Source: a virus (Duplodnaviria > Caudoviricetes). Taken from it: a DNA stretch of 64,000 nt. Below, piece after piece: positions 4,401 through 56,284 of this stretch (position 1 is the stretch's first letter; each line of letters begins with the position of its first letter). The DNA is taken from IMG/VR virus record IMGVR_UViG_3300022723_000184, positions 1-64,000 of that record, one strand, 5' to 3'. The notes below the pieces were generated by a model that did no database searches, had not been told where the DNA came from, and worked only from the letters and a program-made list of their open reading frames with translations. A program made the translations under genes and the position numbers.

Positions 4401-5186
4401 CTGAACAGGGTTCGGACAGGCCTGGAGCTTGCTCCGATGTTTCCCGGCCTCTTGGCCACGGCTCCGGCCATGGCCGCCAACCTCCCGACGCTGACCAGCG
4501 ACATCCGTCAGGGCATGCAGGACACGGCCCGGGACACGCTGATGAACGCGGCCGGAGGCCCCAGCGGGATGATCGATGCGGTGCTCGCCGATCCCCAGCA
4601 GCGTGAGCAGGTCTTCAACCACCTGCAGCAGCGGATGGACGCCGATCCCCGTCTCAAGTCCGAGGTCTTCAACCGCTTCGCCCCGGGCATGGGGAACCTG
4701 GCGGTTGGTGCCCGCGGTTTCAGCGACTTCGTGGGCGGCGCCACCAGGATGATGGACCCGTTGCTCGCCACGATCTTTGGCCCCGAGCACGTGGGCCGGA
4801 TGACCACGACCCACAAGCTCATGCTGGGCCTGGGGCTGCTAAGCACAGTGACGGGCGGCGCCGGGATGGCCATGGGCGGAGGCGGTCTGAGTAAGGCCAT
4901 GACCCTCATGGGCCTGCTACTGGCGGCCGGCGGCGTGCTGGGCGGCAGGCAGAGGAACACCCAGACTCAGGGCGGCAACCACCCGGCCAACGCCGAGATC
5001 CAGCGAGCGCTGACGACCGGAGAGGTCAGTCCTCGGGCAGAAATCGAATACCAGATGCGGCAACAGGTGCCTGGTTTGGCTCAGCGACGAGCCCAACAGG
5101 ATCCTGTTGCCCGGATGGCCCAGCAGCAGACTCAGGACGCCGAGGCGGCCCAGGAGAGGGCCCGACAGTTCAACGCCGTCCGATGA
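1458..5186 (+). CDS. Large Gly/Ala/Gln-rich putative internal virion polyprotein
   Basis: ATG overlaps the upstream TGA; about 1240 aa. Segments are delimited by SKHAA, AKQAT, CKTAE, VKAAI, FKAAA, VKKAY and QKRAF. Several GxxxG hydrophobic helices. Confidence 0.8.
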   Translation: MSRDRSIFNLVSKHAAQDSSAPQRSATGESKGLRYNHKSDDYAQGQDAWASVGKYFKSHLQNGTPPNPFQAKHAMDVSSQLRDHFLKTLGVDTKTGQAQWPGGNVPKTGAEADALYAREKGAVSLIPEAMRQGIIPDPSAPQQPAPAPAVPQQPAQGPVDPTQNEVAGDGMATAIQLAAAKQATSYQTPESTVYEDADGDPEKGDEECKTAESESSGQDAAASGSMSTGTLRSPADQIPTSTGLQEHNTAPDGQVAPKLNVGGGLDYQQAAARTAMNIPQTPNPLANPGLQTTTVKAAIEDVTAVEPPSIGELKSKANGMPTAAKGVNPTNQMQGKSIQPNAHATKIRQQLDKAIAGRGKIGMDKAGRFGWLGKILGKGNLTARPGTAVGAVFDYGAPAAVGGYTYHKSREAGLDPVTSALFGISGGSIAAPRDIARAVRLGRASSLARGESPVTGFLKEMMPAVGRKAGFAGLGLVPAVATNVAPAVANIRKTTENLAKSTEQGEGGANLGQIMDQVHGAMSNVERTTGETAQAASGFKYLPHLLAGGLGLGALGLGHSMYKDWRDERQEAEKDERRKERLAAGRASRRKRAPKIVLRKPGQYTIDYPDEEFKAAAAHAKAADCGVCPEDMAQGVAEGSRGPVSQSDVEALVRSKKDDRLMPPMFEQADKPSKCRVTVTRLVKKAYSGGGPGAGIGTSGMTTDVGMTETQADDAVRPDAAEHHPTTENDRFSMTGGGTRIASDISPLAVGFLDHCEMAGMNAMQVKEAIDRMETTFDDRTVAELRDGFQKRAFGGVLNFGSKALGAGAKALGLGGPKMSEAGRRLVNAAMGVKGQRRFNLGSTAAGAFAPEIGNALQGRGFESEMDWLDRRRLLLGAAGLGAGRLATGSPAARRMIANPAAGGLTGGFVGGGVDALARAAGYDTGGMGSRLGTMFGAASRLPWARRIAAANRGNVVGRGLRGAGRLANSPLGARAKGVEPLNRVRTGLELAPMFPGLLATAPAMAANLPTLTSDIRQGMQDTARDTLMNAAGGPSGMIDAVLADPQQREQVFNHLQQRMDADPRLKSEVFNRFAPGMGNLAVGARGFSDFVGGATRMMDPLLATIFGPEHVGRMTTTHKLMLGLGLLSTVTGGAGMAMGGGGLSKAMTLMGLLLAAGGVLGGRQRNTQTQGGNHPANAEIQRALTTGEVSPRAEIEYQMRQQVPGLAQRRAQQDPVARMAQQQTQDAEAAQERARQFNAVR

Positions 5187-5221: not shown

Positions 5222-5279
5222 GTCTCATCTTCCAGGCCGATGAGCGGGCATTGCGACCCTGGTCAGTATAACTTTCAAC
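5222..5279 (+). repeat. 58-bp hairpin/promoter-like element, copy 1
   Basis: Identical to 7620..7677. CTCATC/GATGAG inverted repeat followed by GTCAGTATAAC. Confidence 0.9.
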
Positions 5280-7619: not shown

Positions 7620-7677
7620 GTCTCATCTTCCAGGCCGATGAGCGGGCATTGCGACCCTGGTCAGTATAACTTTCAAC
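7620..7677 (+). repeat. 58-bp hairpin/promoter-like element, copy 2
   Basis: Identical to 5222..5279; begins immediately after the sulfotransferase stop. Confidence 0.9.
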
Positions 7678-10684: not shown

Positions 10685-10872
10685 GTGAAGCAGGACCAGG
10701 AAGACGTCCGGATCAAGATGCGGCGGACGCCTGAACTCCGGGAGACCGGCTTCCACACGCTGCTCGATGATTCCGGACACCAATTGGAACAAGCTGACCA
10801 AGGCCGGCAAGCGTGACTTCGTCGACGACCGGAAGAAGGCCCTGAAACAAGAGCCTTACCAGAAGAAGATGT
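10685..10872 (+). pseudogene. Small gene apparently split by a frameshift
   Basis: VKQDQEDVRIKMRRTPELRETGFHTLL continues as IPDTNWNKLTKAGKRDF in another frame near 10768. Confidence 0.35.
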
Positions 10873-10920
10873 AGCCGCTATACTGCTTCGACCACGGCCA
10901 TGGAGGGCAAAGGAGCCGCC

Positions 10921-11253
10921 ATGAAACTGTGGACACCAAACAAAAAGATTATCCGCCCAGCCGGCATGAGCCGCAGAGGGTTTCTGCGTGCGCTGGGCGT
11001 TACTGCAACGACCGTCGTCATGGGGCCGACTGCCCTGTCCAACGCCATGGCGCAGTCTGCTTCTGGTTCTTGTCTCACGGAGTTCTACGCCTATGCGACG
11101 ACGGGTGTGACGATTCATGATAACGCTTCGCTGCAGTGGGCCAGGTTCTTGTTTCAAAGTAACGAATCCTTCCGGTACTCATTGGAGAAGGTTAAGGCGG
11201 GTCTGGAGCGTAGCCGGGTTTCCGGGCGGCTTCTGTTCGAGGATGTGGGTTAG
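10921..11253 (+). CDS. Hypothetical protein with twin-arginine-like motif
   Basis: SRRGFL followed by a hydrophobic stretch and AMA. GGAG RBS. Confidence 0.55.
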   Translation: MKLWTPNKKIIRPAGMSRRGFLRALGVTATTVVMGPTALSNAMAQSASGSCLTEFYAYATTGVTIHDNASLQWARFLFQSNESFRYSLEKVKAGLERSRVSGRLLFEDVG

Positions 11254-11261
11254 GGAGTGAC

Positions 11262-11552
11262 ATGGAAATGCTCCGGTCAAACATCGTGTACGACTACGCC
11301 TTCATCATCGGCTTCTGTGTGGGCGGCACGTTTATCGTGGTGCTCTGTTGTGTGATAATCGCCTTGGCCGTCAGGGCCATGTCGATTCTCGTCCGCGAGG
11401 CTAACTGGTCCTACTGCACACGGGACGAACTGGTACAGGAGCAAGCCGAGATCATCCGAAAGCTGTCGGACCGAATAGAACTGGACCCTGTAGACGACTT
11501 GCTGAAGCAGCAGGTGGAAACGGTACTCAAACATGTCCCTACTCGTCGCTGA
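11262..11552 (+). CDS. Single-TM membrane protein
   Basis: Hydrophobic segment YAFIIGFCVGGTFIVVLCCVIIALAV. GGGAG RBS. Confidence 0.65.
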   Translation: MEMLRSNIVYDYAFIIGFCVGGTFIVVLCCVIIALAVRAMSILVREANWSYCTRDELVQEQAEIIRKLSDRIELDPVDDLLKQQVETVLKHVPTRR

Positions 11553-11762
11553 GTTCGTCGGACCGCTGCTGGACGAGCTGACCGAGGCAGTCGCCTTCCA
11601 CATGACACCCGCAGAGACCGGGCGATCTTGGCCCCGCTACGCTGCGGGACAGATAAGCCGGGTATGGTCGAGCAGATGTTCGTCCGGACACCGGTCAGTG
11701 ACGAGGACGTAAACCGCATCGAGAAAGAGTTCAAAGGCAACAAAGGGTTGGTGCTGTTGTGA
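11533..11762 (+). pseudogene. Small gene apparently split by a 1-nt frameshift
   Basis: MSLLVAEFVGPLLDELTEAVAFHMTP continues as RDRAILAPLRCGTDKPGMVEQMF in another frame at a CCC run near 11608. Confidence 0.35.
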
Positions 11763-11965
11763 GCAAGCTGTTCCAGATCTACGAGGACGACCTGGCGACG
11801 TTGGAGGCCGACGTGCCCAAGCTCATCGAGGGACTGATCTCCCCGAACATGACCAACGCCCAGCGGGTGAAGATCCGTCGGGTCAAAGAGATACTCAGCA
11901 ACGTGCGGTGGAACTACGGTCCGCCCGGCGAGGTCGAGGAGATCCCTACAGGAGACGAACCATGA
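11759..11965 (+). CDS. Hypothetical protein
   Basis: GTG start overlapping a TGA; native codon usage. Confidence 0.6.
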   Translation: MSKLFQIYEDDLATLEADVPKLIEGLISPNMTNAQRVKIRRVKEILSNVRWNYGPPGEVEEIPTGDEP

Positions 11966-12171
11966 TCCAGCGGATCGTGCGCAAGTGGAAGAACTGGTGG
12001 GCGCGTCGACGGTGGGCGAAGGCCGGCCAGGCTGAGTATCACCCGCTGGAGCTGCGCCCAGGCAGTCCGCCGCAACCGCAGCGGATCGTCGAGATCAAGA
12101 AGCCCGGCGACACTCCTCAGCAGTTCGAGGACAACAGCGACTACGCCAAGATCCTGCGGGGCGAGTTATGA
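11962..12171 (+). CDS. Hypothetical protein
   Basis: AGGAG RBS and ATGA overlap (MIQRIVRKW...). Confidence 0.6.
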   Translation: MIQRIVRKWKNWWARRRWAKAGQAEYHPLELRPGSPPQPQRIVEIKKPGDTPQQFEDNSDYAKILRGEL

Positions 12172-12449
12172 AGCCTGAAGAGGCGAGTGACGAGCTTGTC
12201 GAGGCGGTCGGGAGGACCACGCTGGCCCGCCTCAAGCGGCTGGAGGCTGCTGCGGACAAGGCAGCGGACAAGTTTCACCGGGAACTGGCGTTGACGATGC
12301 AGGTCGGTAAGCCTGTGCGTTGGGAGTACAACGGCTACCCTCAGACTGGACATGTCGTGATGACGGGTTGCGGAAACCGGGTGAAGGTCGAGAACGAGCG
12401 GACCGGCAAAGAGGTCTGGATCACTTTCTACCAGCTGCTGCCGTATTGA
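12168..12449 (+). CDS. Hypothetical protein (possible SH3-like C-terminus)
   Basis: ATGA overlap. GKPVRWEYNG..TGHVVMTG...RVKVENERTGKEVWI beta-barrel-like pattern. Confidence 0.6.
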   Translation: MKPEEASDELVEAVGRTTLARLKRLEAAADKAADKFHRELALTMQVGKPVRWEYNGYPQTGHVVMTGCGNRVKVENERTGKEVWITFYQLLPY

Positions 12450-12603
12450 CGATGCGTAAGAAGCTCTTATGCTGGATCTGGCGGTTCCGGATCGACCCCA
12501 ACGACGTCGAGGCCGTGCTCGGGCGGAAGACTTACCGTAGCCGGCACAACCACGGCCGGCGAGTAATCTCGCTGGCCGAGAACTCTTTTCCCTGGAGGAC
12601 ACG

Positions 12604-12873
12604 ATGAGCGAAGTGATGGAGAAGACCAAGCCCTTCCTGGGGGCTAAGGTCGAATGGACCAGCCAGGCGGGCGGCCACACCAAGACCAAGCAGGGCGAGG
12701 TGATCGCCGTGATTCCGGCCCTCGCCGACGTCCGCAACTTCTACCCCGCGGGCCGGAAGCTCAGCAACCCGGGCGATCCCCGGAACCATGAGAGCTACCT
12801 GATCCACGTGAAGGGTCACGCCCGGAGCCTGTACTGGCCCCGGGTCAGCAGGCTGAAGGTGATCGAGGACTGA
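12604..12873 (+). CDS. Hypothetical phage protein
   Basis: GGAGG RBS; followed by a terminator. Confidence 0.7.
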   Translation: MSEVMEKTKPFLGAKVEWTSQAGGHTKTKQGEVIAVIPALADVRNFYPAGRKLSNPGDPRNHESYLIHVKGHARSLYWPRVSRLKVIED

Positions 12874-12892
12874 TCGAACCGCCGACGAGCCC

Positions 12893-12930
12893 AAGGCCCT
12901 CTCAGGACATTGCGTCTGGGAGGGCCTTTT
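12893..12930. terminator. Bidirectional intrinsic terminator
   Basis: AAGGCCCTCTCAG/CTGGGAGGGCCTTTT hairpin between convergent genes. Confidence 0.75.
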
Positions 12931-12933
12931 GCA

Positions 12934-13683
12934 TTACAGCTTGTAGGGCTTCTCGCCGAGCAGGTCGACGTAGTTCTTGATAGGGTGGCTGCCGCCGTCC
13001 TTGCGGATGGTGCGGAGGGCCCGCAGGCCGAGGAAGAACGTGCCGAACCAGCCGCGACGCTTCTTCCACTTCTTGCCGTTCCACCAACGGACGGTGCCCA
13101 CGTGCCTGTACCGCCAGCTGAACGGGACCAGGGTGACCGGGTCGCTCTTGTAGATGTAGCGGAAGGTCTTGTCCCCGAGCATCTGCTTATAGACGTGGGC
13201 CGCCTCGCCATTGAAGCACCGGGGCTGGCCGAAGGTGACCACGCTGTCGATGTGGCACTTGATGCCGTCGTCGTTGTGACCGCTGTGCACGATCTGGTGC
13301 TGTAGGCGGCTGGCGAAGACCGCGGCCTCGGCGCCGCCCTTGGAGTGGCCCGTGATGTGGACGTGGGCCGACCCCGCCAGGTAGGCCCGGTTCATGAGCT
13401 TCGACCAGCCGCTGTCGACGCTGTCGTAAAAGCCCTTGTGGCATCGGCCCCAGACATGGAACGCCTGGACGATGGCCCTGGCGTCCTGCACGCCGTCGAG
13501 GATGTCGCTGGTCCCTCGGAACGCGTAGATCAGGTCGCGGCCCTTGGTCAGCACGTAGCACTCCAGGCCCATGCCGGTCTCGATGAACCGGACGGTGTCG
13601 TATTCGTCGGCATACTTTTCCTGGAACTCAGGCTCTTCGAGGTACGCGTCTTTGGCCAGGTAGGCCAGGGTGAGATGGTCCAT
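12934..13683 (-). CDS. Lipase class 3 (alpha/beta hydrolase)
   Basis: FRGT, HKGF, ITGHSKGG nucleophile elbow, TFGQPR, DPV and a C-terminal His. GGAGG RBS before the ATG at 13683. Confidence 0.9.
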   Translation of the reverse strand: MDHLTLAYLAKDAYLEEPEFQEKYADEYDTVRFIETGMGLECYVLTKGRDLIYAFRGTSDILDGVQDARAIVQAFHVWGRCHKGFYDSVDSGWSKLMNRAYLAGSAHVHITGHSKGGAEAAVFASRLQHQIVHSGHNDDGIKCHIDSVVTFGQPRCFNGEAAHVYKQMLGDKTFRYIYKSDPVTLVPFSWRYRHVGTVRWWNGKKWKKRRGWFGTFFLGLRALRTIRKDGGSHPIKNYVDLLGEKPYKL

Positions 13684-45605: not shown

Positions 45606-45868
45606 TCGTCGAAATCATCAGCGACGGCAAACCGCTACGCATCCCGGCGAGTCAGTTGGTCGTCTTTGACGACAACGGCACGCCGATTTGCGTTGCGGGC
45701 GAGTACGGGCCGGACGGTGCGTACAAGGTCTCGCACGCGGCCGACGAAGACTTCAACCAAAGCCTGCGTGCCTTCGGGGTTGGAAGGCACCAGGTCGTCA
45801 CAGATTTCCTAGAGCCACCTCCCGTTCCCGGCGGGGCGAGGCCGCTTACAGGACCATCGAAAGGATGA
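45602..45868 (+). CDS. Hypothetical protein
   Basis: GTGA overlap; coherent 88-aa ORF. Confidence 0.7.
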   Translation: MIVEIISDGKPLRIPASQLVVFDDNGTPICVAGEYGPDGAYKVSHAADEDFNQSLRAFGVGRHQVVTDFLEPPPVPGGARPLTGPSKG

Positions 45869-46794
45869 GCGTCATGTCCGATCACCCCAAGAACACGAAC
45901 CACATCTACGGCAGCAACAACAAATCGGTCGTCGACAACCGGCATGGTGACCGAAAGGGCAGACCGGGTCAGCCATTGAAAGCGAACCCGAGTTACCTAA
46001 CGAACAAGGACAACCCGTCGGCCGACAAGTACTACCGCAACCCGACGGAGGGCGGCCAGGAGGTGGCCCCGAACTCCAACGTTTCGACCAGCTCTTACCT
46101 CCACCCGCAGAGCACGGCTCCCCTCTCGCTCACGAACGAAGCGGACATGGGCGGGGTCTTCGACCTGATCCTCGGCCGCCTGCGTTCGGGCCAGGCCAAG
46201 GTGATCGTCCAGGTGACCGACGCCAACCTGGAGCGGCGTCTCGACGCCCGCCTCGACATGGCCCAGGCCCGCCAGCAAATTGACAACCGACAGCGTGCCG
46301 CCGTCCAGATCGGGCGCCCCGCTGCCTTGTCCGCGGCTACCGTGGCCGCCCCGACGCCCACCCCGACCACCGAGCGTCAGGCCGACGACGACCTGGCGTC
46401 CGACATCGACCCGGAGGCCTACGTGAACGGCGAGCTGCCCGAAGACGCGATCGACACCAACGCCTCGGCCGTGGCCGTCATCGAGGGCCCGGAGGCAGGC
46501 ACCGACGAGGGCGAGGACCTGGGCGAGGAGCCCGGGCCCGAGGGCGAGCCCGGCGAACCGCAGGCCTCGGACGGGGACGGCGGGGACGATGACGACGATG
46601 ACGACGACGGCGATGACGGGGACGACGATGACGACGAGGAGGAGGATGACGACGATGGCGAAGAAGAAGCTCCGGAAGGCGAGGAAGACGAAGAGGACGA
46701 GTTCGGCGACGTGCTAGACGACGTCGAAGAAGAACTCGACGACGACCTGGCGGACCTCGACGAAGAGCCCGAGTCTCATCTTCCAAGCCGATGA
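45865..46794 (+). CDS. Protein with very acidic low-complexity C-terminus
   Basis: D/E tract from about 46560 to 46770; ends SHLPSR inside repeat copy 3. Confidence 0.75.
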   Translation: MSVMSDHPKNTNHIYGSNNKSVVDNRHGDRKGRPGQPLKANPSYLTNKDNPSADKYYRNPTEGGQEVAPNSNVSTSSYLHPQSTAPLSLTNEADMGGVFDLILGRLRSGQAKVIVQVTDANLERRLDARLDMAQARQQIDNRQRAAVQIGRPAALSAATVAAPTPTPTTERQADDDLASDIDPEAYVNGELPEDAIDTNASAVAVIEGPEAGTDEGEDLGEEPGPEGEPGEPQASDGDGGDDDDDDDDGDDGDDDDDEEEDDDDGEEEAPEGEEDEEDEFGDVLDDVEEELDDDLADLDEEPESHLPSR

Positions 46795-46840
46795 GCAGGC
46801 ATTGCGCCCGGTCAGTATAACTTCAAAAGTACTTTTTGAA
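46773..46840 (+). repeat. Hairpin/promoter-like element, copy 3, plus AAAAGTACTTTT palindrome
   Basis: GTCTCATCTTCCAAGCCGATGAGCAGGCATTGCGCCCGGTCAGTATAACTTCAAAAGTACTTTTTGAA, directly upstream of the beta'-C gene. Confidence 0.85.
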
Positions 46841-46857: not shown

Positions 46858-49800
46858 ATGAAGGCGACGGTCGGTCAACTTCTGGTGAACGACGCACTCC
46901 CGGAGGACATGCGGGACTACCAAATGGTCCTCGACAAAAAGGGTGTGCGGAATCTCATGGCCGACCTGGCCCGTAAGCACCCGGAGGATTACCGGGAGGT
47001 CAGCCACAAGCTCTCACAGATCGGTTGGCGTTCGGCCCAGGAATCCGGCGGCTACAGCTTCGGCTTGGAGCACATGCTCAAAAGCAAGACCGGCCGAGAG
47101 ACCCGCCAACGCATCCAGAAAAAGATCAACGAGATCCTCGCCGACGACCGGCTCACCGACGAGCAGCGTGAGCAGCTGATCCTCAAGCACATCGGCAAGG
47201 AACGCGAGGCCATGCAGTCGGGGATCTTCGACGAGGCCCGCGCCGCGAAGAACCCGCTGGCCATGCAGGTGTTGGGCTCGGGCCGCGGCAACCCGATGAA
47301 CCTGTCGAGCCTGTTGGGCTCGGACCTGCTGTACACCGACCAGCGTGACCGGCTGATTCCGATCCCCGTGCTCCGCAGTTACAGCGAGGGCCTGAGCCCC
47401 GCCGAGTACTGGGCCGGGACCTACGGCGCCCGCAAGGGCGTGATGTGTTTGGCTAAAGGAACTCAGGTGCTGATGGCCGATTACACGGACAAGCCGATCG
47501 AGAAGGTGAAACCTGGTGACTGGGTGATGGGATCTGATCGTCAAGGGCGGATGACGCCTGTGAGGGTTATCCGTCGTTACTACAACGGTGTGCAGCCTTG
47601 CTACCGCTACCGATTTCGCAAAAATAGTTGCCGTTTGCCGTCCTCGCATCGAACACTCGTGGCGACCGAAAAGCATAAGGTCCTTGCCACCGTAAAAGCC
47701 GGACGACCCGGTTCAACCTATGCACACCGGTCAATCTACGTCCCGACACCATTACCGCTTGAAGCGGCGCGTCTGCTTAAAAATCCAGTAAAGAATGAAT
47801 ACGTGGCGACGCCGGCGGCCGGGGAGGCGGGCGAGCAGTCCCGAGTGCGAGAACCGTCGGCCTTGTTGTATGGGTTGATGCTCGGCGACGGGTGTATGGC
47901 AGAATCGACCCGTGGGCGGTATTTGTTGTCGTGCAATGACCCGCTCCTTTTGGACGACCTGCGTGAGTACATCTCATTGTTCGACGTGTTTTTGGACAAA
48001 GCAGGCGGTGATAATTACAACTATACGCTGGCGGGCGATGGGGGGGCTGCGGTTGCGGTCGATTTGAAGACGCGTCTCGGCGAGAAATTGGCCCACGATA
48101 AGGAGCTTCCAGAGGGTTGTTTCGCATGGGACGATGTTTCGGTTGGTCAGTTGCTCGGAGGATTGTTTTCCACCGACGGCTCGATTACTGGCCGAAACGG
48201 TAACGCAACAATTAAGTTGACACTTTCTTCCCGGCGTATGGTGGAACAAGTGCAACGACTGTTGGAACTCCGGTTGGGTATATGGTCCGGCGGGCTGATC
48301 TTCACAGCTAAAGAAAAGAAGAAGAACGCAACGCACGACCAATGGGGTTTTGCGGTGTCACACGCTGCGTCGGTTGCCAGGTTTTTCGCGCGGGTCCCCT
48401 TGTACGGCAAGAAGAGGGTTCAGGCGAAGCGTATCGCGGCTACCATGAAACCGGACCACTCAAACGGGTCACCGGGGTTTAAGATCTACGATCGAGAACC
48501 GGCTGGCGAAATTGCTACATATGATTTGGAGGTTGATCACCCAGACCACCTGTTTGTGCTTTCTAGCGGCCTGGTCGTGTCCAACAGCACGAAGTTCGCC
48601 ACCCAGGAGGCGGGCTTCCTCTCTAAGCAGCTCAACCAGATGGGCCACCGCCTGGTGGTCACAGATGAGGACGGGGACGGCGAGCCCGATTCGCTCCGCG
48701 GCCTGCCGGTGGATGTCGACGACCCGGACTCCGCGGGAAGCCTGCTGGCCCACGACGCCGGCGGCTACAAGCGGAATACGGTGATCACGCCCAAGATCCT
48801 GCACAACCTTCGCCGCCAAGGTCTCAAGCGGATACTGGTCCGCAGCCCCACGGTCGGTGGTAGCCCTGAGGGTGGTATCTACAGCCGTGACGCCGGCGTC
48901 CGCGAGAAGGGCGGGCTCCCGGGTCGCGGCGAGAACATCGGCCTGGCCGCTGCCCAGGCGTTGTGTTTGTCTGGAGGGACGAGAGTCCAGATGGCCAACG
49001 GAGAGGTCAAAGCGGTGGAGGACGTTAAGCCCGGAGATGTAGTTCTGGGATGCAGTGTCGACGGGGTGTTGCGGCCTGTTCCTGTGCTTGACGCTTGTTT
49101 CAGCGGCATTAAATCGTGTGTGAAGGCCCTGTTCAGGCGGGGCACGGGTAAGGCCGCCAAAGACAATCTGCTAGAGCTGGTCGCGACTCCAGAGCACAAA
49201 ATACTCTCCGAGATTGTTGTTCGTTCGGGTAGGGGTTCGGTAAAACGTGTTCCTTACTTCGATCCGGTTGCCGTTCGCCCGCTCGGAACCAAAATCCCAC
49301 ATGAAAAGCGATCAGGGGGCGATCGGTTCTGCGCTAAACTGGCGTCGTCCTTTGACGATACCGGGCTTGGTGTTCAACCTTTAGCTTTTCTTTTGGGTCT
49401 GGTAATCGGTGATGGTTGCTATAGCGGATCAGCGAACTGCGTAGGGTTCAGCTGTTATGATCCGGTGCTCGCCGCTGACGTCGGTGCGTATCTCAAGCCG
49501 TTGAACTTCGAGATCAAAAACAACACGGATAACGAGTACCGCGTTGTCGATACAACGCACCGCCAAGTGAAGCGACGCGAAGATGGTAGCTGGTATCGCA
49601 GCCGTCTTATTGAGCTGCTTCGTGTCGAGGGAATGTTCGGGCAGACGAGCAGTATTAAGACTTTGCCGAAGTCCGTGCACTCGTGGGATAACGCGTCTGT
49701 GGCTGCGCTGATCGCCGGTCTGCTCGTAACGGACGGGTACGTGATATCGACGGGCGGTTTGGGGTTCGGATCGAACTCTAAGTGCTTGCTGGATGGCGTT

Positions 49801-52800
49801 CGGCAGCTTCTAGGGTTGCGGTGGGGCGTCTGGGGTTCGTCGGTTATATCTTCCACGAAGAAGCGTGCTGATGGTGATGAGTACGCCCCTAACTGGCGGT
49901 TTACGGTTAATCGCAGAGACGATGTTAATCTTCTTCGTTCTATTCTTCCTGTCGCTGGCGTGAAACGTGGTCGGCTAGACTCGCTGTTATCGAAGTGGAA
50001 CTCGAAACGGCGTTCGGCAAGAGGCGCGCCTAGAGTCAAGGGTCGGTGTACTCGTATTTCATTGGAACGGGTCGGCGAGTTGCCGACATACGACCTGTAC
50101 ATCGCACACCCTGATCACCTTTTCGTGTTGGCCAACGGACTGGTTGTTTCCAACTCCGAGCCCCTGAGTCAGGCTCAGCTTTGCCTTGCAGCAGGGACTC
50201 TAGTGCGGATGGCCGACTGGACGGTGAAACGGATCGAGCAGGTCCGGGCTGACGAACAAATCATGGGAGCCGACAAATCCGGGCGGCTGTTTCCGGTGCG
50301 CGTTGTCCGGGTCTACGACAACGGAGAGCGGGAGTGTGTTCGGACGGTATTCCGGGAAGCCAAAACGAAGCAACACGTCGATCTGGTCAGCACCGGAGAC
50401 CACAAACTCTTGTCCAAGACAAGGCATTGGGCGATACCGTCCGAGCGAGTGGAACACGGCGTGTTTCCGGTCGCCCGGAAATGTGTTGGCTACTCGGCCA
50501 AGATGCCGTTCGCGGTCGTAAACGATCACGGCTGTGCAGAACCGTTTGCCGGCCTGTGCGGTCTGCTGCTGGGTGATGGAGGGTATACTGTCAGCGTTCA
50601 CGGGGTTCACTGGTCTTGTTTCGAGCCGGACCTGGTGGAAGAGATGCAGCCTTACCTGGCAGGACTGGGTTTGAAGGCTACGAAGCTCCAAGGGCACGAA
50701 GGGCACGAAGGCTATTACCGAATCAGCCAGGTCGAAGACGCGATTCGGCAAGACCCGGAGACCGGACGAGTGCTGCCCGGAGACCGTAATCCGGCACTGA
50801 TCTGGTTGAAGCAGCACCGGATGTACGGCAAGTACGCACACGAGAAAGAGATTCCCGAGGAGATTTGGAGTTGGGACCAAAACTCGGTTGCACGATTGCT
50901 GGGCTGCCTGTTTGCGACAGACGGTAGCGTTTATCCGCCGACGCAGCGACCCGATGAACTCTATATCAACTTCAGCTCAACTTCTTTGGAGCTTGCGAAG
51001 CAGGTCAAGGAACTAATTCAGGTCCGCTTTGCGATTCATAGCTCGTCGATCGGAAGCCACAAGGGAAAACGCAAGCGGAAGCTTTATTCGTTCACGATCA
51101 CCCGCAAAGAACAGGTCAGACGGTTCGCGTCTCGGATCGCGGTTCCGGCGCGTAAAGGACAGATGCTGGCCGACTATCTGCCAAAACTCCAGGAAGACGA
51201 GTCCACCGAGTATTTCCATCGCCAGCGGCAGGAACCCGTGGGCACGGTTGCGACATACGATCTCGAAGTCGACCATCCGGACCATCTTTTCGTGCTGGCC
51301 AACGGTCTGATTGTTTCTAACTCGGCCAAGCACTCGGGCGGCGTGGCCGGCAGCGAGAAGGCGGTCTCCGGGTTCGACTACATCAACCAGCTGATCCAGG
51401 TGCCCAAGAAGTTCAAGGGTGGTGCGGCCCATGCCCAGGTCGACGGCATCGTGAGCCGGATCGAAGAGGCTCCGGCCGGTGGCAAGTACGTCGTGATCAA
51501 TAACGAGAAGCACTACGTCGGTCCGGACTTCTCGTTGAAGGTTAAGCGAGGCGACGAGATTGAGGCGGGCGACGTCCTGAGCGAGGGCATCCCGAACCCG
51601 TCGGAGGTCGTGCGCCACAAGGGCGTTGGCGAAGGTCGGCGGTACTTCACCCAGGCCTTCCGCCAGGCGATGCATGAAGCTGGGATACACGCCAGCCGCC
51701 GCAACGTGGAACTGTTGGGTCGGGGCCTGATCGACCATGTGCGGATGACGGATGAGTACGATCAGTACGTCCCGGACGATGTGGTACCCTACAGTGCACT
51801 GGAGCACCGGTGGCAACCCCGGGAAGGGAGCCGCCGGGTCCCGTACAAGCAGGCGGTTGGCAAGTACCTGGAGCGTCCGGTCCTCCACTACACGATCGGC
51901 ACGAAGATCCGGAAATCGATGCTCAAGGACTTCGAGGACTTCGGGGTCGAGGAGCTGGAGACCCATGACGAGCCGCCGCCGTTCGAGCCCGAGATGATCC
52001 GGGGCATGTACTCGGTCCAACACGATCCCGACTGGATGACCAGGATGTACGGCTCAGGCCAGAAGAAGAGCTTGCTGAGTGCCGTGCACCGTGGCGGGAC
52101 CAGTGACGAGCTGGGCACCTCGTTCGTCCCGGGCCTGGCCCGTGGCGTCGACTTCGGCCGGCAGGGCCTGGTCACGCCGCCCGCCCCACCCCAGAAGATG
52201 GGCAGCGACATGCAGAAGGAAGCGGAGGGCATGTGGGGAACCGGGGCCATCCCGGGCTCACCCAACTTCAACCTGCAGCAGCAGGCCCGCCAGTCGTACA
52301 ACGTCGGCAACAGCATGCTCAGCAGTATGCGTGGCGGCGGTGGCGTGGGTCCGGCAACGGCCGGCGACGCCAACCGGTTCCGACAGTACCTCTCGTCTTT
52401 CGCCGCTGCCCCCGGCCCCACCGGGGCACCTGCCGGTCAGGCTGCTGCGTCCGTGGCCCGCCCGGCGGCTGCTACGGCCGGCAGTGCCGCGACCGGCAAC
52501 GGCCTGACCACCGCCGACTGGCACGCGTGGAGTGCTGGACCGATGGGGGCGGGCGCCGCGACCAAGGCCGGGACCCGTCCGCTGGCCGCTGCTGCCCTGC
52601 GGTACGCACCGGCCGTGGCCAAGGCCCCGGGCATCCGCAACCTGGTGGGCGCTATGGCCCGGCCCTCGGCCGCCGCCCAGGCGTTGAGCGGGGTGAAGCC
52701 GCAGATGCCGGGCACCGTCTCGAAGTGGCTGCGGCCCGGCTACCACCAGTACGCGACCAAGGTCCTGGGTCAGTCCCACAACCTGGCTCAGGGTGCCGGC

Positions 52801-53604
52801 AAGTTCGGGCGGTTCGCGGGCAAGGCTGGGCGACTCGCTGGTCCGTTGGGCCTGGCGGTCGCCCCGCTGGAGTTCGGGATCCGTGGCGGCAGCGAGCTTT
52901 ACGACATGGCCACGGGTCAGGACACCTTCGGGAACATGGTCGACCAGCGGCTGCGGGACGCTGGCAACTGGCAGGGGCCGACGGGTTATGCGGGCGCCGT
53001 GCTCAACACACCGTTCAGTCCGTCGAGCGTGGCGGCCTTGGGCAAAGCCAAATACGACCTGGCGATGGCCCCCATCCAATCGTTTGCCCAACGACGCCAA
53101 TCGCTGGCCGCGGGCAACCGGCTCAACGAGCAGCTGGCCGAGAACCGCGAGGCGGCGGGTGGCGTCGACGAGCTGCTGCAGCACGCTCCGAAGGACATCG
53201 CCAGCCGGTACGCCCGGAAATACGTGGACGACACGCCCTGGTACGGTCTGGGCGGGTTCAATCCGTTCGTGAACGATCAGGGCCGCATGACGTGGGTCGA
53301 CAAGGGGACCGGCGAGGAAGCTGGTTCCGGGGCCATGCAGGCGATCGAGCAGGTCAAACAGCAGAACCAAGATCGTGAAGCGGCACAGGAGGCCGCGAGG
53401 TACGCGAGGCAAAAACCGCAGCAGGCCGCGGTGGTCCAGGCGAAACCGGCTGCTCCGGCACCCGCTCAAGAGGCCCGTGCGGCGTCGCTCCTCGGCAACC
53501 CGATCTACCGACAAGTGCTCAGCCAGGTCAGCGCCCAGAGCCCGGAAATGGGAGCGATGCTCCTGCTGTCAGGTGCCGATCCGTCTCATCTTATGGGCCG
53601 ATGA
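46858..53604 (+). CDS. rpoC: RNAP beta' C-terminal part with 3 inteins and a ~460-aa non-RNAP C-terminal extension
   Basis: ATVGQLLVN, GARKGVM|STKFATQEAGFLSKQL (bridge helix), IGLAAAQAL|SEPLSQAQL|SAKHSGG (trigger loop). A Gly/Ala-rich tail follows QKEAE. Confidence 0.92.
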   Translation: MKATVGQLLVNDALPEDMRDYQMVLDKKGVRNLMADLARKHPEDYREVSHKLSQIGWRSAQESGGYSFGLEHMLKSKTGRETRQRIQKKINEILADDRLTDEQREQLILKHIGKEREAMQSGIFDEARAAKNPLAMQVLGSGRGNPMNLSSLLGSDLLYTDQRDRLIPIPVLRSYSEGLSPAEYWAGTYGARKGVMCLAKGTQVLMADYTDKPIEKVKPGDWVMGSDRQGRMTPVRVIRRYYNGVQPCYRYRFRKNSCRLPSSHRTLVATEKHKVLATVKAGRPGSTYAHRSIYVPTPLPLEAARLLKNPVKNEYVATPAAGEAGEQSRVREPSALLYGLMLGDGCMAESTRGRYLLSCNDPLLLDDLREYISLFDVFLDKAGGDNYNYTLAGDGGAAVAVDLKTRLGEKLAHDKELPEGCFAWDDVSVGQLLGGLFSTDGSITGRNGNATIKLTLSSRRMVEQVQRLLELRLGIWSGGLIFTAKEKKKNATHDQWGFAVSHAASVARFFARVPLYGKKRVQAKRIAATMKPDHSNGSPGFKIYDREPAGEIATYDLEVDHPDHLFVLSSGLVVSNSTKFATQEAGFLSKQLNQMGHRLVVTDEDGDGEPDSLRGLPVDVDDPDSAGSLLAHDAGGYKRNTVITPKILHNLRRQGLKRILVRSPTVGGSPEGGIYSRDAGVREKGGLPGRGENIGLAAAQALCLSGGTRVQMANGEVKAVEDVKPGDVVLGCSVDGVLRPVPVLDACFSGIKSCVKALFRRGTGKAAKDNLLELVATPEHKILSEIVVRSGRGSVKRVPYFDPVAVRPLGTKIPHEKRSGGDRFCAKLASSFDDTGLGVQPLAFLLGLVIGDGCYSGSANCVGFSCYDPVLAADVGAYLKPLNFEIKNNTDNEYRVVDTTHRQVKRREDGSWYRSRLIELLRVEGMFGQTSSIKTLPKSVHSWDNASVAALIAGLLVTDGYVISTGGLGFGSNSKCLLDGVRQLLGLRWGVWGSSVISSTKKRADGDEYAPNWRFTVNRRDDVNLLRSILPVAGVKRGRLDSLLSKWNSKRRSARGAPRVKGRCTRISLERVGELPTYDLYIAHPDHLFVLANGLVVSNSEPLSQAQLCLAAGTLVRMADWTVKRIEQVRADEQIMGADKSGRLFPVRVVRVYDNGERECVRTVFREAKTKQHVDLVSTGDHKLLSKTRHWAIPSERVEHGVFPVARKCVGYSAKMPFAVVNDHGCAEPFAGLCGLLLGDGGYTVSVHGVHWSCFEPDLVEEMQPYLAGLGLKATKLQGHEGHEGYYRISQVEDAIRQDPETGRVLPGDRNPALIWLKQHRMYGKYAHEKEIPEEIWSWDQNSVARLLGCLFATDGSVYPPTQRPDELYINFSSTSLELAKQVKELIQVRFAIHSSSIGSHKGKRKRKLYSFTITRKEQVRRFASRIAVPARKGQMLADYLPKLQEDESTEYFHRQRQEPVGTVATYDLEVDHPDHLFVLANGLIVSNSAKHSGGVAGSEKAVSGFDYINQLIQVPKKFKGGAAHAQVDGIVSRIEEAPAGGKYVVINNEKHYVGPDFSLKVKRGDEIEAGDVLSEGIPNPSEVVRHKGVGEGRRYFTQAFRQAMHEAGIHASRRNVELLGRGLIDHVRMTDEYDQYVPDDVVPYSALEHRWQPREGSRRVPYKQAVGKYLERPVLHYTIGTKIRKSMLKDFEDFGVEELETHDEPPPFEPEMIRGMYSVQHDPDWMTRMYGSGQKKSLLSAVHRGGTSDELGTSFVPGLARGVDFGRQGLVTPPAPPQKMGSDMQKEAEGMWGTGAIPGSPNFNLQQQARQSYNVGNSMLSSMRGGGGVGPATAGDANRFRQYLSSFAAAPGPTGAPAGQAAASVARPAAATAGSAATGNGLTTADWHAWSAGPMGAGAATKAGTRPLAAAALRYAPAVAKAPGIRNLVGAMARPSAAAQALSGVKPQMPGTVSKWLRPGYHQYATKVLGQSHNLAQGAGKFGRFAGKAGRLAGPLGLAVAPLEFGIRGGSELYDMATGQDTFGNMVDQRLRDAGNWQGPTGYAGAVLNTPFSPSSVAALGKAKYDLAMAPIQSFAQRRQSLAAGNRLNEQLAENREAAGGVDELLQHAPKDIASRYARKYVDDTPWYGLGGFNPFVNDQGRMTWVDKGTGEEAGSGAMQAIEQVKQQNQDREAAQEAARYARQKPQQAAVVQAKPAAPAPAQEARAASLLGNPIYRQVLSQVSAQSPEMGAMLLLSGADPSHLMGR
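47446..48585 (+). mobile_element. Intein beta'-1 (LAGLIDADG, 380 aa)
   Basis: CLAKGTQV...TEKH; MLGDG and FSTDG; ends DHPDHLFVLSSGLVVSN before Ser. Confidence 0.9.
48964..50154 (+). mobile_element. Intein beta'-2 (LAGLIDADG, 397 aa)
   Basis: CLSGGTRV...TPEH; VIGDG and LVTDG; ends HPDHLFVLANGLVVSN before Ser. Confidence 0.9.
50182..51321 (+). mobile_element. Intein beta'-3 (LAGLIDADG, 380 aa)
   Basis: CLAAGTLV...TGDH; LLGDG and FATDG; ends DHPDHLFVLANGLIVSN before Ser. Confidence 0.9.
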
Positions 53605-53654
53605 GCAGGCATTGCGATCTCGGTCAGTGTACCCTCAAAAGCACTTTCGAAAAG
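53583..53654 (+). repeat. Hairpin/promoter-like element, copy 4 (diverged)
   Basis: GTCTCATCTTATGGGCCGATGAGCAGGCATTGCGATCTCGGTCAGTGTACCCTCAAAAGCACTTTCGAAAAG. Stem arms intact, loop changed. Confidence 0.8.
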
Positions 53655-53686
53655 ACGTATGCCGACGCAAAGCCCCGAAGTAGAGC

Positions 53687-53716
53687 TTGGCAATCGTTTC
53701 AGAGCGGGTTTATAAT
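53687..53716 (+). promoter_or_regulatory. Sigma70-like promoter
   Basis: TTGGCA-N18-TATAAT upstream of the AGGAG RBS and ATG at 53747. Confidence 0.6.
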
Positions 53717-53746: not shown

Positions 53747-56284
53747 ATGGAAGCGACGGCTCAACTTGGCAAGGTAGCCAGCCGTGAGGACTTGGAGCGC
53801 CTGAAGAAGGCTTGTCTCAAGTTCAATCCGAACGAGAAAATGGCGAGCTTGGGTGGTGAGCAGGAGGCCGGCTTCGAGCAGGCGTTCAGCTCGCTGGCCT
53901 ACGCCTACCTCAAGGACAAGGCTCCCCGTCTGCTCGATTACATCGTCGGGTTCCAGCTCGTCGATCGCAACGAGGACAACACCAAGGCCATGGGCGTCTT
54001 CGGGTTCAAGATCGGAGAGCGGTGGCTCTACGCCCCGGTTTTCTTCCTGAACGGCGACCTGAAGGGGCACGAGCTGCTGTACGTTAAGCGGCAGGACATG
54101 TTCGTGCCTATGAAGGAGAACTGGGTCAACTACCTGATGGCCAAAAAGCCGCACACCTTAGGCGAGCGGTCGCCTAAGGACACGTTCCAGCTCGGCGGTA
54201 TGGCCCCGAACATCGAGCAATTGGCGTGGCCCCCGGAGCAAAGCAAGTTCGGGTCCGACCGCGGTGGTCGTCGGATTGCTGACTGGGCCCAGGGCGTCAT
54301 GCCCATGATCGGGGCCGGCGCCACGAAGAAGGCCCGGTTCATGTACCGCGGTCAGGAGTGGGGCCGAGGCCTGCTACTCGACAAGGTCGCTAGCAGGCCG
54401 ATGCATGCGGCGATGGCCGGCATCAAGCTCGACTTGCCCGGACTGCTCCGGTCCAACGTCCACATCGCGAAGCGTGCCCACATGTTGTCGCAGACCTACC
54501 CCGGCATCAAGAAGGCCTTCGATCGGTTCTACGGTAAGGACTTCTTCAAGGACGTGGCCCTCGACATCAAGAAGGCCTACGACCGCGAGCAGAAGAACAT
54601 CGTCCCCCGCACCAAGAAGGCGGCGGCACCCGCACGCGGCAAGTTCCTGATCCCCGAGGAGCAGGAGAAGAAGGCCGCCGGCCCGCCGGTCAAGGTCATC
54701 ACCCGCGACGACGTGGCCACGGTCCAGAACCTGCCTGACCTGACGGAAGAGGAGCGGCGAAAACTGCTCAACGACGGTGTGCTCATTGTCGACCGCCGGA
54801 AGGGTGACGAGGTCAGTGTCTCGTACAACACGCAGGCCTCGCCGCAGCGGCTGGTGAATCCGGCGGAGACAGGGCTCTACGACATCCTGGAGAAACCGGC
54901 CGAGTGGAACGAGTTCCTCGTGATCTCGAACCCCTACTCCAACCGTCGGCAGCACAACGCCGTGGTCGCCGTGCGTCTGGCCGACGGCGGCAACCAGGCC
55001 TGGCAGTGCATCAGCCGCCAGGCCCTGTGGTCTCGCCACGCCTCGACCCGCGAGGACTTCCAGAAGTGGTTCGACGGCCTGGACGACAAGGAGACGCTGC
55101 AGAAGGGCGGCACGTACCTGGCGATCGGTGAGCGTGGTCAGGGCACCGTCCCGTTCAAGGTCACCGCGGTCTACGACGACGGCTGCTACAAGGTCAACTT
55201 CCTGGACAACTTCCAGCATGGCCCCAAGCACCCCGGCGATCTGTCGCACACGTTCTACGACGACTTCAACAACCACGACGGCGGCTACGTTTCGTCGTAT
55301 GGCGCCAAGCTGTTCATCAACAAGCGTCCCGACGCCGAGATCCGGGCGATTGCCGGCGAGCTGCACATCCCAGACAAGTGCAAGATCATCCAGCTCAAGA
55401 GCCCGCCCAGACCCCGAAAGGCCGAGAACAATATTGTTACCGAGGTCGGCTCAGACGAGTACGAACCGGGCGCCAGCGACCCGCCGCCGATCAAGCCCGG
55501 CAACATCGCAGACATCCAGCTGAGCTTCACGCAGAAGACGGCTCGGATGAAGATCTACGCCGACCACAACGAGGTGACGATTACCACCGAGAAGACGGGC
55601 AGCGACCGGATGAGCGCCCGCCAAGGTCTGATCGAGCTGGTGCGTCGCCACGGCCTGGCCGAGAAGCAGGCCCGGGAGATGCTCAAGCAGGCCCAGACCA
55701 AGGGCAGCAGGATCTTCCGCATCAAGTACGCGATGCCCTTCCCGTTCGCCGAGACGGTGGGCGCTGGTCCCGGCAGCCCGCAGTTCCCGGCCCCCGAGAT
55801 GGGCAGTGAGCAGCGAGGCTACGGCAGCACTCCGGCCATCTACCCGCAGGAAGAGTTCATCCCGGTCGAAGGGCTGCAGTCGGACATGACCGATCCGCAG
55901 ATTTACGATCCGTTCATGATGCCCGATCCGCACGCGGTTAGCATGGCCGAGCAGGCCGGGGCCTCGGGGCAGAAGGAAGTGTTCGACGTCGGCATGATCA
56001 GCGGCCTGCTCAAGGCCGTGCGACAGGACAGCCTGGTCGACCGGTACCTCGGCGACCTCATGAAGGCCCTGGACCGTCTGGGGCGCATGCTGTTCCTGTT
56101 CTACTGGCACCAGGAGGAGTTCGAGGACCGCTACGGCAAGGCCGACTTGCCGGAGCTGGAGGACTCCATCCGCAACGCGTTCGAGACGCTCGGTGACGTG
56201 ACGCTCTTCCTCAAGGAGAAGACGATCGGCGCCGGCCGGGACGAGCTTGGCGATCCTTCGATCGAGGAAGCAGCGAGGAACTAA
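53747..56284 (+). CDS. Large putative virion structural protein with K-x-A motifs
   Basis: 845 aa; GKVAS, EKMAS, DKVAS, TKKAA and EKKAA. Function not recognised. Confidence 0.8.
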   Translation: MEATAQLGKVASREDLERLKKACLKFNPNEKMASLGGEQEAGFEQAFSSLAYAYLKDKAPRLLDYIVGFQLVDRNEDNTKAMGVFGFKIGERWLYAPVFFLNGDLKGHELLYVKRQDMFVPMKENWVNYLMAKKPHTLGERSPKDTFQLGGMAPNIEQLAWPPEQSKFGSDRGGRRIADWAQGVMPMIGAGATKKARFMYRGQEWGRGLLLDKVASRPMHAAMAGIKLDLPGLLRSNVHIAKRAHMLSQTYPGIKKAFDRFYGKDFFKDVALDIKKAYDREQKNIVPRTKKAAAPARGKFLIPEEQEKKAAGPPVKVITRDDVATVQNLPDLTEEERRKLLNDGVLIVDRRKGDEVSVSYNTQASPQRLVNPAETGLYDILEKPAEWNEFLVISNPYSNRRQHNAVVAVRLADGGNQAWQCISRQALWSRHASTREDFQKWFDGLDDKETLQKGGTYLAIGERGQGTVPFKVTAVYDDGCYKVNFLDNFQHGPKHPGDLSHTFYDDFNNHDGGYVSSYGAKLFINKRPDAEIRAIAGELHIPDKCKIIQLKSPPRPRKAENNIVTEVGSDEYEPGASDPPPIKPGNIADIQLSFTQKTARMKIYADHNEVTITTEKTGSDRMSARQGLIELVRRHGLAEKQAREMLKQAQTKGSRIFRIKYAMPFPFAETVGAGPGSPQFPAPEMGSEQRGYGSTPAIYPQEEFIPVEGLQSDMTDPQIYDPFMMPDPHAVSMAEQAGASGQKEVFDVGMISGLLKAVRQDSLVDRYLGDLMKALDRLGRMLFLFYWHQEEFEDRYGKADLPELEDSIRNAFETLGDVTLFLKEKTIGAGRDELGDPSIEEAARN

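Follow-up and report, generated by a model that had tools for sequence, protein, structure and literature searches.

The gene for the C-terminal part of the RNA polymerase (RNAP) beta' subunit (beta'-C) of an uncultured phage (Duplodnaviria; Caudoviricetes) ends in a 473-aa tail that lies outside the polymerase fold and that, on balance, appears to be a lineage-specific passenger riding on an RNAP that is independent of it, likely co-packaged and co-delivered with that enzyme. The gene occupies positions 46858-53604 (+ strand) in the first 64 kb of the 201,946-bp IMG/VR record IMGVR_UViG_3300022723_000184, which is ~90% complete; this stretch of 64,000 nucleotides, hereafter termed the window, has a guanine-plus-cytosine (GC) content of ~63% and carries almost all of its genes on the + strand. 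Judged by sequence comparison, unrelated proteins have been attached repeatedly at the end of beta'-C, since many unrelated tails are found there, some of them enzymes, and fused and separate states interchange; the window tail is one orphan example, represented by four contigs. A preliminary description of the window, made from its sequence without database searches, had proposed that the tail loads RNAP into the head and is then cut off by the prohead protease. Phages that inject their own RNAP can begin infection independently of the host polymerase, and the manner in which large multisubunit RNAPs and their helpers enter and leave capsids is understood chiefly from N4 and the phiKZ group.

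Polymerase Identity and Coding Status of the beta'-C Gene

The open reading frame (ORF) of beta'-C is uninterrupted and encodes a 2248-aa precursor that contains three inteins and the C-terminal tail; once the inteins are subtracted, 1091 aa remain, namely ~618 aa of RNAP and the 473-aa tail. Residues 1-1775, minus inteins, are assigned by sequence to the C-terminal part of a multisubunit RNAP beta' subunit and to the family RNA_pol_Rpb1_5 (PF04998). In the precursor, Pfam detects three Hint/LAGLIDADG inteins together with a weak PF04998 match, which in this intein-laden form is sub-threshold (E = 0.002, 18 bits vs a 28.5-bit cut-off); intein-less homologues, which share 62-76% identity with the window across the final 223 aa, carry a precomputed PF04998 match. 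The beta' motifs GARKGVM/STKFATQEAG and GLAAAQAL/SEPLSQAQL/SAKHSGG (slashes mark intein sites) are whole across the insertions, and the intein-less homologue P0004 is continuous across all three sites (GARKGVMATKFATQE, AAAQALSEPLSQAQLSAKHSGG). Similarity to RNAP, as traced by BLAST and tblastn against phage beta'-C proteins, ends at residues 1767-1775, in ...TSFVPGLARGVDFGRQGLVTPP (FGRQGLVTPP; nt 52117-52182). The last RNAP extein (51322-52182, + strand), which closes with this sequence, is the final stretch alignable to >1000 phage beta'-C proteins and is modeled by AlphaFold2 (AF2) as a confident domain.

The preliminary description was accurate in placing the end of RNAP similarity ahead of a KEA-bearing linker (KEA at 52216-52224) with a long Gly/Ala/Gln-rich tail behind it. 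Counted from EGMWG to the stop, the tail measures 459 aa (~460 aa had been given) within the one uninterrupted ORF, and its composition is A19 G13 Q8 P7 %. On sequence grounds the tail is genuine coding sequence and not a chance read-through, because its frame has a GC content at third codon positions (GC3) of 0.82, with 0.81-0.88 in the phage's confirmed genes, and because blocks within it are conserved with three diverged relatives. For annotation this is a warning, as the 950-2250-aa ORFs called "beta-prime" in these phages combine RNAP with inteins and unrelated tails.

A Variable Slot between beta'-C and p845

The interval from the beta'-C stop to the start of the next conserved gene, p845, is herein called the slot. 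The occupancy of this slot was surveyed in 80 IMG/VR loci fetched by a profile of the RNAP domain alone, a less biased sample. In 56 of the 80, beta'-C is tail-less and the slot is empty, with p845 starting 27-248 nt downstream; tails of 399-840 aa are fused in frame at 11 loci; a tail-less beta'-C is followed by at least one separate gene before p845 at nine; and the remaining four loci are cut off before the state of the slot can be read. Separate slot genes also occur in L006 and L007, and such genes often begin before beta'-C ends, giving overlaps of 17 nt (L006), 4 nt (L084), and 1 nt (L032 and L057). The idea that each tail-less genome has a separate slot gene was rejected, as most slots are empty. 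The fusion, whose retention in orthologous beta'-C genes had been named as a point to check, is kept in two relatives of the window, L005 and L008, and is absent or replaced by separate genes in most others.

When 5.8 billion proteins were searched, >1000 beta'-C homologues were recovered. The best 120 of them make up a biased list, as the tail formed part of the query and the length of candidates was limited; 67 of these proteins have at most 57 residues past the fold and 53 carry extensions of 93-772 aa. Extensions of at least 90 aa form at least 19 groups unlinked by BLAST, nearly all of which are rich in Ala, Gly, Pro, and Gln. On a tree built from 85 beta'-C C-domains, the clade of 36 to which the window belongs contains every one of the 14 fused cases and 11 of the 12 separate ones, and in the other clade, of 49, the slot is essentially always empty. 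The minimum number of gains and losses on this tree is at least seven for the fused label and at least seven for the separate label; by this sequence-based reckoning, the two states have been interchanged several times.

Some occupants of the slot have recognizable domains. The fused tail of L061 (10667-12958) comprises a LigD 3'-phosphoesterase and an ATP-dependent ligase domain, that of L010 (10670-12916) comprises acylphosphatase-like, P-loop kinase, and DUF5661 domains, and DUF5661 recurs in three further fused tails. In L084, a separate 836-aa DUF6321 protein (10714-13221) makes up the gene with the 4-nt overlap. When the stand-alone slot proteins P0124 and P0125 were compared with all tails, a single 23-residue match, of P0125 to P0036, was obtained. 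A similar amphipathic helix (M..ASELG+LAARVKMA and the like) forms the N-terminus of five otherwise unrelated slot proteins, these being encoded in L010 (12922-14361 and 14405-15949), L027 (11131-11655), and L084 (13275-14207 and 15713-16243); a short hidden Markov model (HMM) of this "ELG+LAA" helix gave no further significant matches, and the resemblance may be due to chance.

The Tail Family

An exhaustive HMMER search of 1.84 billion representatives recovered only two homologues of the tail (E = 2e-30 and 1e-25), and a third, P0005, was added by BLAST (BLASTP E = 6e-18). By sequence, the window, L004, L005, and L008 constitute one orphan tail family, whose alignments share the blocks AGKxGRxxGPxGLAVAPxEF, (N/R)T(P/S)FSPS, (E/D)TPWY, NP(F/W), GRMxWVDKxTGEE, and LLxNPxY...MLLL. 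Within the family, the final 223 aa of the RNAP domain share 70-76% identity with those of the window, as against only ~28-41% for the tails. P0004 (L005; 1041 aa, no inteins) has a homologous tail fused in frame, with an RNAP domain ~70% identical to the window over those 223 aa and a tail 35-41% identical, and in P0005 (L008) the tail is likewise fused to beta'-C. In the nearest family member, P0003 (L004), the tail lies in the +1 frame behind the beta'-C TAA, its ORF opening 17 nt before this stop, which ends beta'-C at ...FGRQGLTAQGD (L004 1476-1500). In L008, the C-terminal LLxNPxY motif (~3900-4250) is in a different frame from the rest of the tail. All tail relatives are short metagenome contigs, two of the three with frame irregularities, which in both L004 and L008 may reflect genuine splits, sites of frameshifting, or indel errors. 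A fusion of two genes by loss of a stop codon, which the preliminary description had offered as its alternative, finds support as evolutionary history, given the separate overlapping slot genes of relatives and the position of the L004 tail behind a TAA.

Further searches did not enlarge the family. Queries with the tail or the tail alignment against viral and metagenome contigs yielded no confirmed match, and a word-indexed protein search, queried with either the tail by itself or the tail region of P0004, returned nothing new, with low-complexity words saturating the candidates. The tail-family HMM, run against 103 other tails and slot proteins, revealed no remote link. No significant match to the tail was found in Pfam, PHROGs, or NCBIfam, nor to the family alignment among PDB sequences, and the ESM Atlas gave sub-threshold matches only (best score 0.86).

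Architecture and Predicted Structure of the Tail

Directly behind the RNAP fold lies the linker APPQKMGSDMQKEAE (52183-52227, + strand), which holds KMG (52195-52203) as well as KEA. It is followed on the same strand by GMWGTG (52228-52245), identified by motif comparison as a weak local form of an aromatic-Gly motif that reads FFGG[KR][FY] in relatives, and by a low-complexity region of ~190 aa rich in Ala, Gly, Pro, and Gln (52246-52815), which is poorly conserved in the alignment and predicted to be disordered (AF2 predicted local distance difference test, pLDDT, 28-42). The best-conserved block, AGKAGRLAGPLGLAVAPLEFGI (52816-52881), is hydrophobic and Gly/Ala-rich and consists of invariant alignment columns; the conserved C-terminal half (52882-53601) contains NTPFSPS, DTPWY, NPF, GRMTWVDKGTGEE (a beta-hairpin), long helices, and SLLGNPIY...MLLL. 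The AF2 model of the tail, calculated from a shallow alignment of four sequences, has an overall pLDDT of 43 and is too poor for fold searches; in it, ~316 residues are disordered and precede a hairpin-plus-helix region, with pLDDT values of 70-82 at tail residues ~340-425 and 451-476. As modeled, the tail is an orphan protein, disordered for the most part, that has one conserved block of Gly/Ala-hydrophobic character and is folded only in a small C-terminal part.

No transmembrane segment was found in the tail, for which the best 19-residue Kyte-Doolittle mean is 1.11, and no lytic or peptidase domain was detected in it by Pfam, PHROGs, or NCBIfam. Of the hydrophobic helices noted in the preliminary description, a hydrophobic block is indeed present, albeit below the transmembrane level. 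The resemblance to ORF 1371-5186 noted there (as 1458-5186) extends to composition alone; homology between the two was rejected, as the best pairwise BLASTP match has E = 0.035. Tandem Repeats Finder (TRF) detected no tandem repeats of any period in 52100-53700, and an Rfam scan of 52.0-53.8 kb was empty.

The Linker and the Aromatic-Gly Motif

In three of the four tail-family members, K-x-A stands directly before G-[ML]-[FW]-G (KEA, KQA, and KEA), and L004 has KYA four residues earlier. Conservation of the K-x-A linker, suggested at the outset as a point to check, is seen within most of the family; beyond it, the aromatic-FGG motif is conserved instead. Counts of the tripeptide show no enrichment in beta'-C plus tail (10 seen vs 12 expected), modest enrichment genome-wide (256 vs 202, z = 3.7), and the strongest enrichment in the window in p845 (17 vs 5.4, z = 5.5), with 16 vs 7.5 expected in an intein-bearing ORF starting at 60274; tripeptide enrichment in an Ala-rich proteome is weak evidence.

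The aromatic-Gly motif (Phi[FWY]G[GT]; typically [FWM]FGG[KR][FY]) occurs in 22 of 64 extended homologues, vs 0.55 in shuffles. It is positioned 25-47 residues past the beta'-C fold, after a Pro-rich linker, and in nine relatives it constitutes the extreme C-terminus (e.g., ...PKPAMFFGGKFNVGAK); K-x-A is not part of it. Motif-bearing relatives include P0094, P0074, P0031, P0008, P0048, P0059, and P0072, as well as L009, L011, and L012, and another short-tail group terminates in ...PLGSEPRTL or ...GVLEGL. A genome-wide packaging tag of the GMWG/FFGG type was rejected, as the motif has a single occurrence in such a context in the genome. In an AF2 model of the last extein plus linker, the linker and motif are unstructured and undocked on the beta'-C domain, a result that is uninformative either way. 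For the linker/GMWG region, a flexible linker with a short docking motif is preferred, on the sequence patterns, over a cleavage site.

Neighborhood and Virion Context

The far edge of the slot is formed by p845 (53747-56284, + strand), a conserved 845-aa gene identified by sequence comparison as the homologue of the virion protein gp218 of the cultured Salmonella phage Arash. Both ends of its product show homology to Arash gp218 and to D69 0266, and the product has no match in Pfam, PHROGs, NCBIfam, the PDB sequences (profile search), or the ESM Atlas. The order beta'-C, slot, gp218-like gene is kept from the window clade to the distant Arash and Vibrio phages, in which beta'-C stops 8 codons past the last aligned residue (Arash gp216; Vibrio phages D69 (0264), D148, and D181). 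The RNAP genes are laid out as beta, then beta-C/beta'-N, then beta'-C, and the 202-kb record holds a single RNAP beta set, with one Rpb2_6-bearing locus at 39-42 kb; a search for sigma70 gave no match in the phage genome.

LC-MS of an Arash virion preparation recorded 3516 spectra for beta (gp206), the most detected protein, and 1210 for beta' (gp216), along with 1148 for the slot helicase gp217 and 1149 for gp218; a sigma factor was present too (PMC10585845). A virion RNAP, as the preliminary description supposed, is by analogy plausible for the window phage, because there is a single RNAP set, sigma70 is without a match, a gp218 homologue lies next door, and RNAP was detected in Arash virion preparations.

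Favored and Rival Explanations

The tail, which is no part of the RNAP core, fills a hypervariable slot between beta'-C and the gp218 homologue; among the contents of this slot are low-complexity orphans at one extreme and enzymes at the other. Under the favored explanation, being fused to beta'-C, or tightly coupled to it in translation, would provide for co-expression, 1:1 stoichiometry, and co-localization with beta'-C, and, with RNAP probably packed in the virions of this phage group, the passenger would most likely be co-packaged and co-delivered at infection. The Pro-rich linker and the aromatic-Gly motif (GMWG) would be a likely flexible joint or docking element. The dependency is thereby reversed relative to the earlier proposal, in that the tail would ride on an RNAP having no need of it. 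A bolder extension, which is unlikely, holds that the beta'-C C-terminus is a modular cargo adaptor (linker plus FFGG[KR][FY] docking motif) in a large uncultured clade of ~200-kb phages, and that lineage-specific passengers fused or translationally coupled behind it, as diverse as orphan disordered proteins, LigD-type ligase/phosphoesterase, P-loop kinases, and the Arash helicase are packaged and injected with the single virion RNAP.

The original proposal, which makes the tail a module for packaging or tethering that brings RNAP into the prohead, with cleavage by the prohead protease at KMG/KEA leaving an EGMWG neo-N-terminus on the released tail, is distinctly improbable. It gains from the location of the RNAP genes beside head-module genes (p845 and the protease-like ORF from 60274), from the K-x-A that precedes G-[ML]-[FW]-G in three family members and lies slightly earlier in L004, from the modest genome-wide excess of K-x-A, and from the C-terminal domain of the N4 virion RNAP, reportedly needed for encapsidation (PMC4496689, citing unpublished data). 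The tail is nevertheless not a likely loader, because most relatives lack it (56 of 80 loci have neither tail nor slot gene) and tail-less Arash apparently still packages RNAP, which is present in its virion preparations. Some relatives have the tail or its analogues as separate genes (nine of the 80 loci, and L004, L006, and L007), an observation that the preliminary description had itself held to count against its proposal, and others have none. Moreover, K-x-A is unenriched in beta'-C plus tail, other tail families conserve FFGG[KR][FY] without K-x-A, and a cut at the motif would free only ~8 residues in the nine relatives where it is the extreme C-terminus. A targeting peptide would be needed for packaging and conserved wherever the protein is packaged, which does not hold for the tail. 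Just as doubtful, if not slightly more so, is a platform akin to the C-terminal domain (CTD) of Rpb1, in which a disordered tail, packaged or not, recruits or tethers nucleic-acid-processing factors or drives condensates. The topological position is the same (C-terminus of a beta'/Rpb1 homologue), ~300 residues are predicted to be disordered, aromatic "sticker" motifs are present, and relatives bear ligase, phosphoesterase, and kinase domains, which act on nucleic-acid ends, at this position. Yet the tail shows neither repeats, whatever the period, nor sequence similarity to a CTD, it is missing from most of the clade, its conservation resides in the folded C-terminal blocks and not in the disordered region, and the gene context is one of head morphogenesis, not RNA processing.

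That the tail is an internal head or ejection protein (of the T7 gp14-16 or P22 E-protein type), serving as an envelope conduit that pulls RNAP in, is very unlikely. Many internal and ejection proteins are likewise Ala/Gly/Gln-rich and largely unfolded, the Gly/Ala-hydrophobic block is invariant in the tail family, and the context is that of the virion; against this, maximal hydropathy falls short of the transmembrane level, lytic and peptidase domains are lacking, and no homology links the tail to ORF 1371-5186 or to any PHROG. Arash is in addition a myovirus (PMC10585845), and a conduit would be less obviously needed if the window phage also had a contractile tail. Least credible of all is a functionless read-through or an assembly artefact joining two frames. 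The frame disagreements of L004 and L008 and the lost stop codon raised in the preliminary description lend it some color, but the window and L005, contigs that are independent and strongly diverged, both maintain an open frame of ~450 codons that includes conserved blocks, GC3 matches that of confirmed genes, and eleven other loci have long in-frame tails, some with intact enzyme domains.

Several points weigh against the tail as a co-delivered passenger. The virion proteomics are limited to Arash, only 29% identical in beta'-C, and its authors cautioned that abundant enzymes may co-purify with virions (PMC10585845). The tail has no recognizable domain, fold, or transmembrane segment, so its function is deduced from context alone. 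The modules of the slot are not demonstrably homologous, because the window-tail-family HMM matches no other family, and "one slot, many passengers" thus rests on position and composition. Lastly, the +1 frame of L004 and the frame break of L008 could be indel errors of metagenome assembly.

If the passengers are co-delivered, the slot would amount to a ready list of phage proteins that are candidate effectors of early infection and would offer a natural place to engineer cargo delivery; if the cargo-adaptor extension were true, it would constitute a previously undescribed and evolvable delivery route for early effector proteins. Should the tails prove not to be passengers, the slot would still be a clear example of genes that repeatedly fuse and split at an essential enzyme.

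Inteins, Upstream Gene, and CRISPR Repeat Copies

The three inteins lie on the + strand at 47446-48585 (intein 1, 380 aa, LAGLIDADG; Pfam Hint/LAGLIDADG_3; inserted at GARKGVM/STKFATQE), 48964-50154 (intein 2, 397 aa; inserted at AAAQAL/SEPLSQAQL), and 50182-51321 (intein 3, 380 aa; inserted at SQAQL/SAKHSGG). The GC3 of intein 3 is 0.67 vs 0.86-0.88 in the flanking exteins, which is consistent with a more recent acquisition. The gene 5' of beta'-C (45688-46794) encodes a 368-aa protein with a run of ~70 almost pure Asp/Glu residues (46540-46755; GAC/GAT/GAG repeats) and without a family match.

A solo copy of the phage's own 36-nt CRISPR (clustered regularly interspaced short palindromic repeats; Cas12m) repeat at 53583-53618 (+ strand) overlaps the last six codons of the tail (SHLMGR) and its TGA stop, and a second (46773-46808, + strand) runs across the stop of the acidic-protein gene upstream, with 50 nt left to the start of beta'-C. 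Further solo copies on the + strand are situated at gene ends (5222-5257 and 7620-7655), and an additional one lies at ~72.7 kb of the record; the array itself is at ~151505-152250 of the record, on the - strand. The four solo repeats of the window share a ~25-nt 3' extension (CCYGGTCAGTRTAMCYT..CAA), and in two cases the repeat provides the final codons and the TGA stop for the gene before it. The tail and the upstream acidic protein both end in SHL..R because a repeat copy overlaps each stop. The solo repeat has no evident bearing on the function of the tail.

Comparison with Known Systems

The Rpb1 CTD of eukaryotic RNA polymerase II is a long disordered C-terminal extension of the largest catalytic subunit; the window tail differs from it in having neither heptad nor other repeats, in sharing no sequence similarity with it, and in being optional within its clade. 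Capsid-targeting propeptides, such as the T4 capsid-targeting sequence (CTS) with its gp21 site L/I-x-E and those cut by phiKZ gp175 at S/A/G-x-E, are N-terminal and recur in many head proteins. The general idea that a short peptide beside a protease site directs internal proteins into the prohead is common to both cases, whereas the candidate site in the window is internal, ~460 residues from the C-terminus, the GMWG-type motif occurs once in the genome, and K-x-A is unenriched in beta'-C. Encapsulin cargo-loading peptides dock cargo inside HK97-fold shells, and by analogy the nine relatives with a terminal motif may be compared with such cargo, as they consist of a folded domain, a Pro-rich linker of 30-45 residues, and a short C-terminal Gly/hydrophobic motif; in the window, unlike in encapsulin cargo, the motif is degenerate (GMWGTG) and internal, with 450 residues behind it.

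The closest parallel in gene organization is phage Arash (OQ632216), which shares with the window the order beta'-C (gp216), slot (gp217), gp218 and a split multisubunit RNAP adjoining head genes, and in which RNAP subunits and the slot product are found in the virion preparation at similar spectral counts, a feature of Arash itself (PMC10585845). Its beta'-C, at 29% identity, is intein-free and ends 8 codons past the RNAP fold, and its slot holds a separate helicase gene. Accessory domains on virion RNAP subunits are already known from AR9/PBS1, and terminal domains that serve packaging and injection from N4. The N4 virion RNAP (vRNAP) is a packaged polymerase with large non-catalytic terminal domains, of which the C-terminal one is reportedly required for encapsidation and the N-terminal one for injection of the genome (PMC4496689); it is, however, a single-subunit T7-like enzyme without sequence relation to the window RNAP, and its terminal domains are present in all N4-like phages, whereas the window tail is missing in most relatives. 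Neither the second, non-virion RNAP set of phiKZ/AR9-type phages nor their division of beta and beta' into 4-5 polypeptides is found in the window phage, which, unlike AR9, has one set. The Bacillus jumbo phages AR9/PBS1 have an HD nuclease domain fused to beta-C of their virion RNAP (PMC7598289). This domain is attached at the N-terminus, sits on beta, is found group-wide, and is a recognizable enzyme domain, in contrast to the C-terminal, optional orphan on beta' described herein; it is nonetheless likewise a non-RNAP accessory domain borne covalently by a multisubunit phage RNAP, and as such provides a precedent for a passenger on a packaged polymerase.

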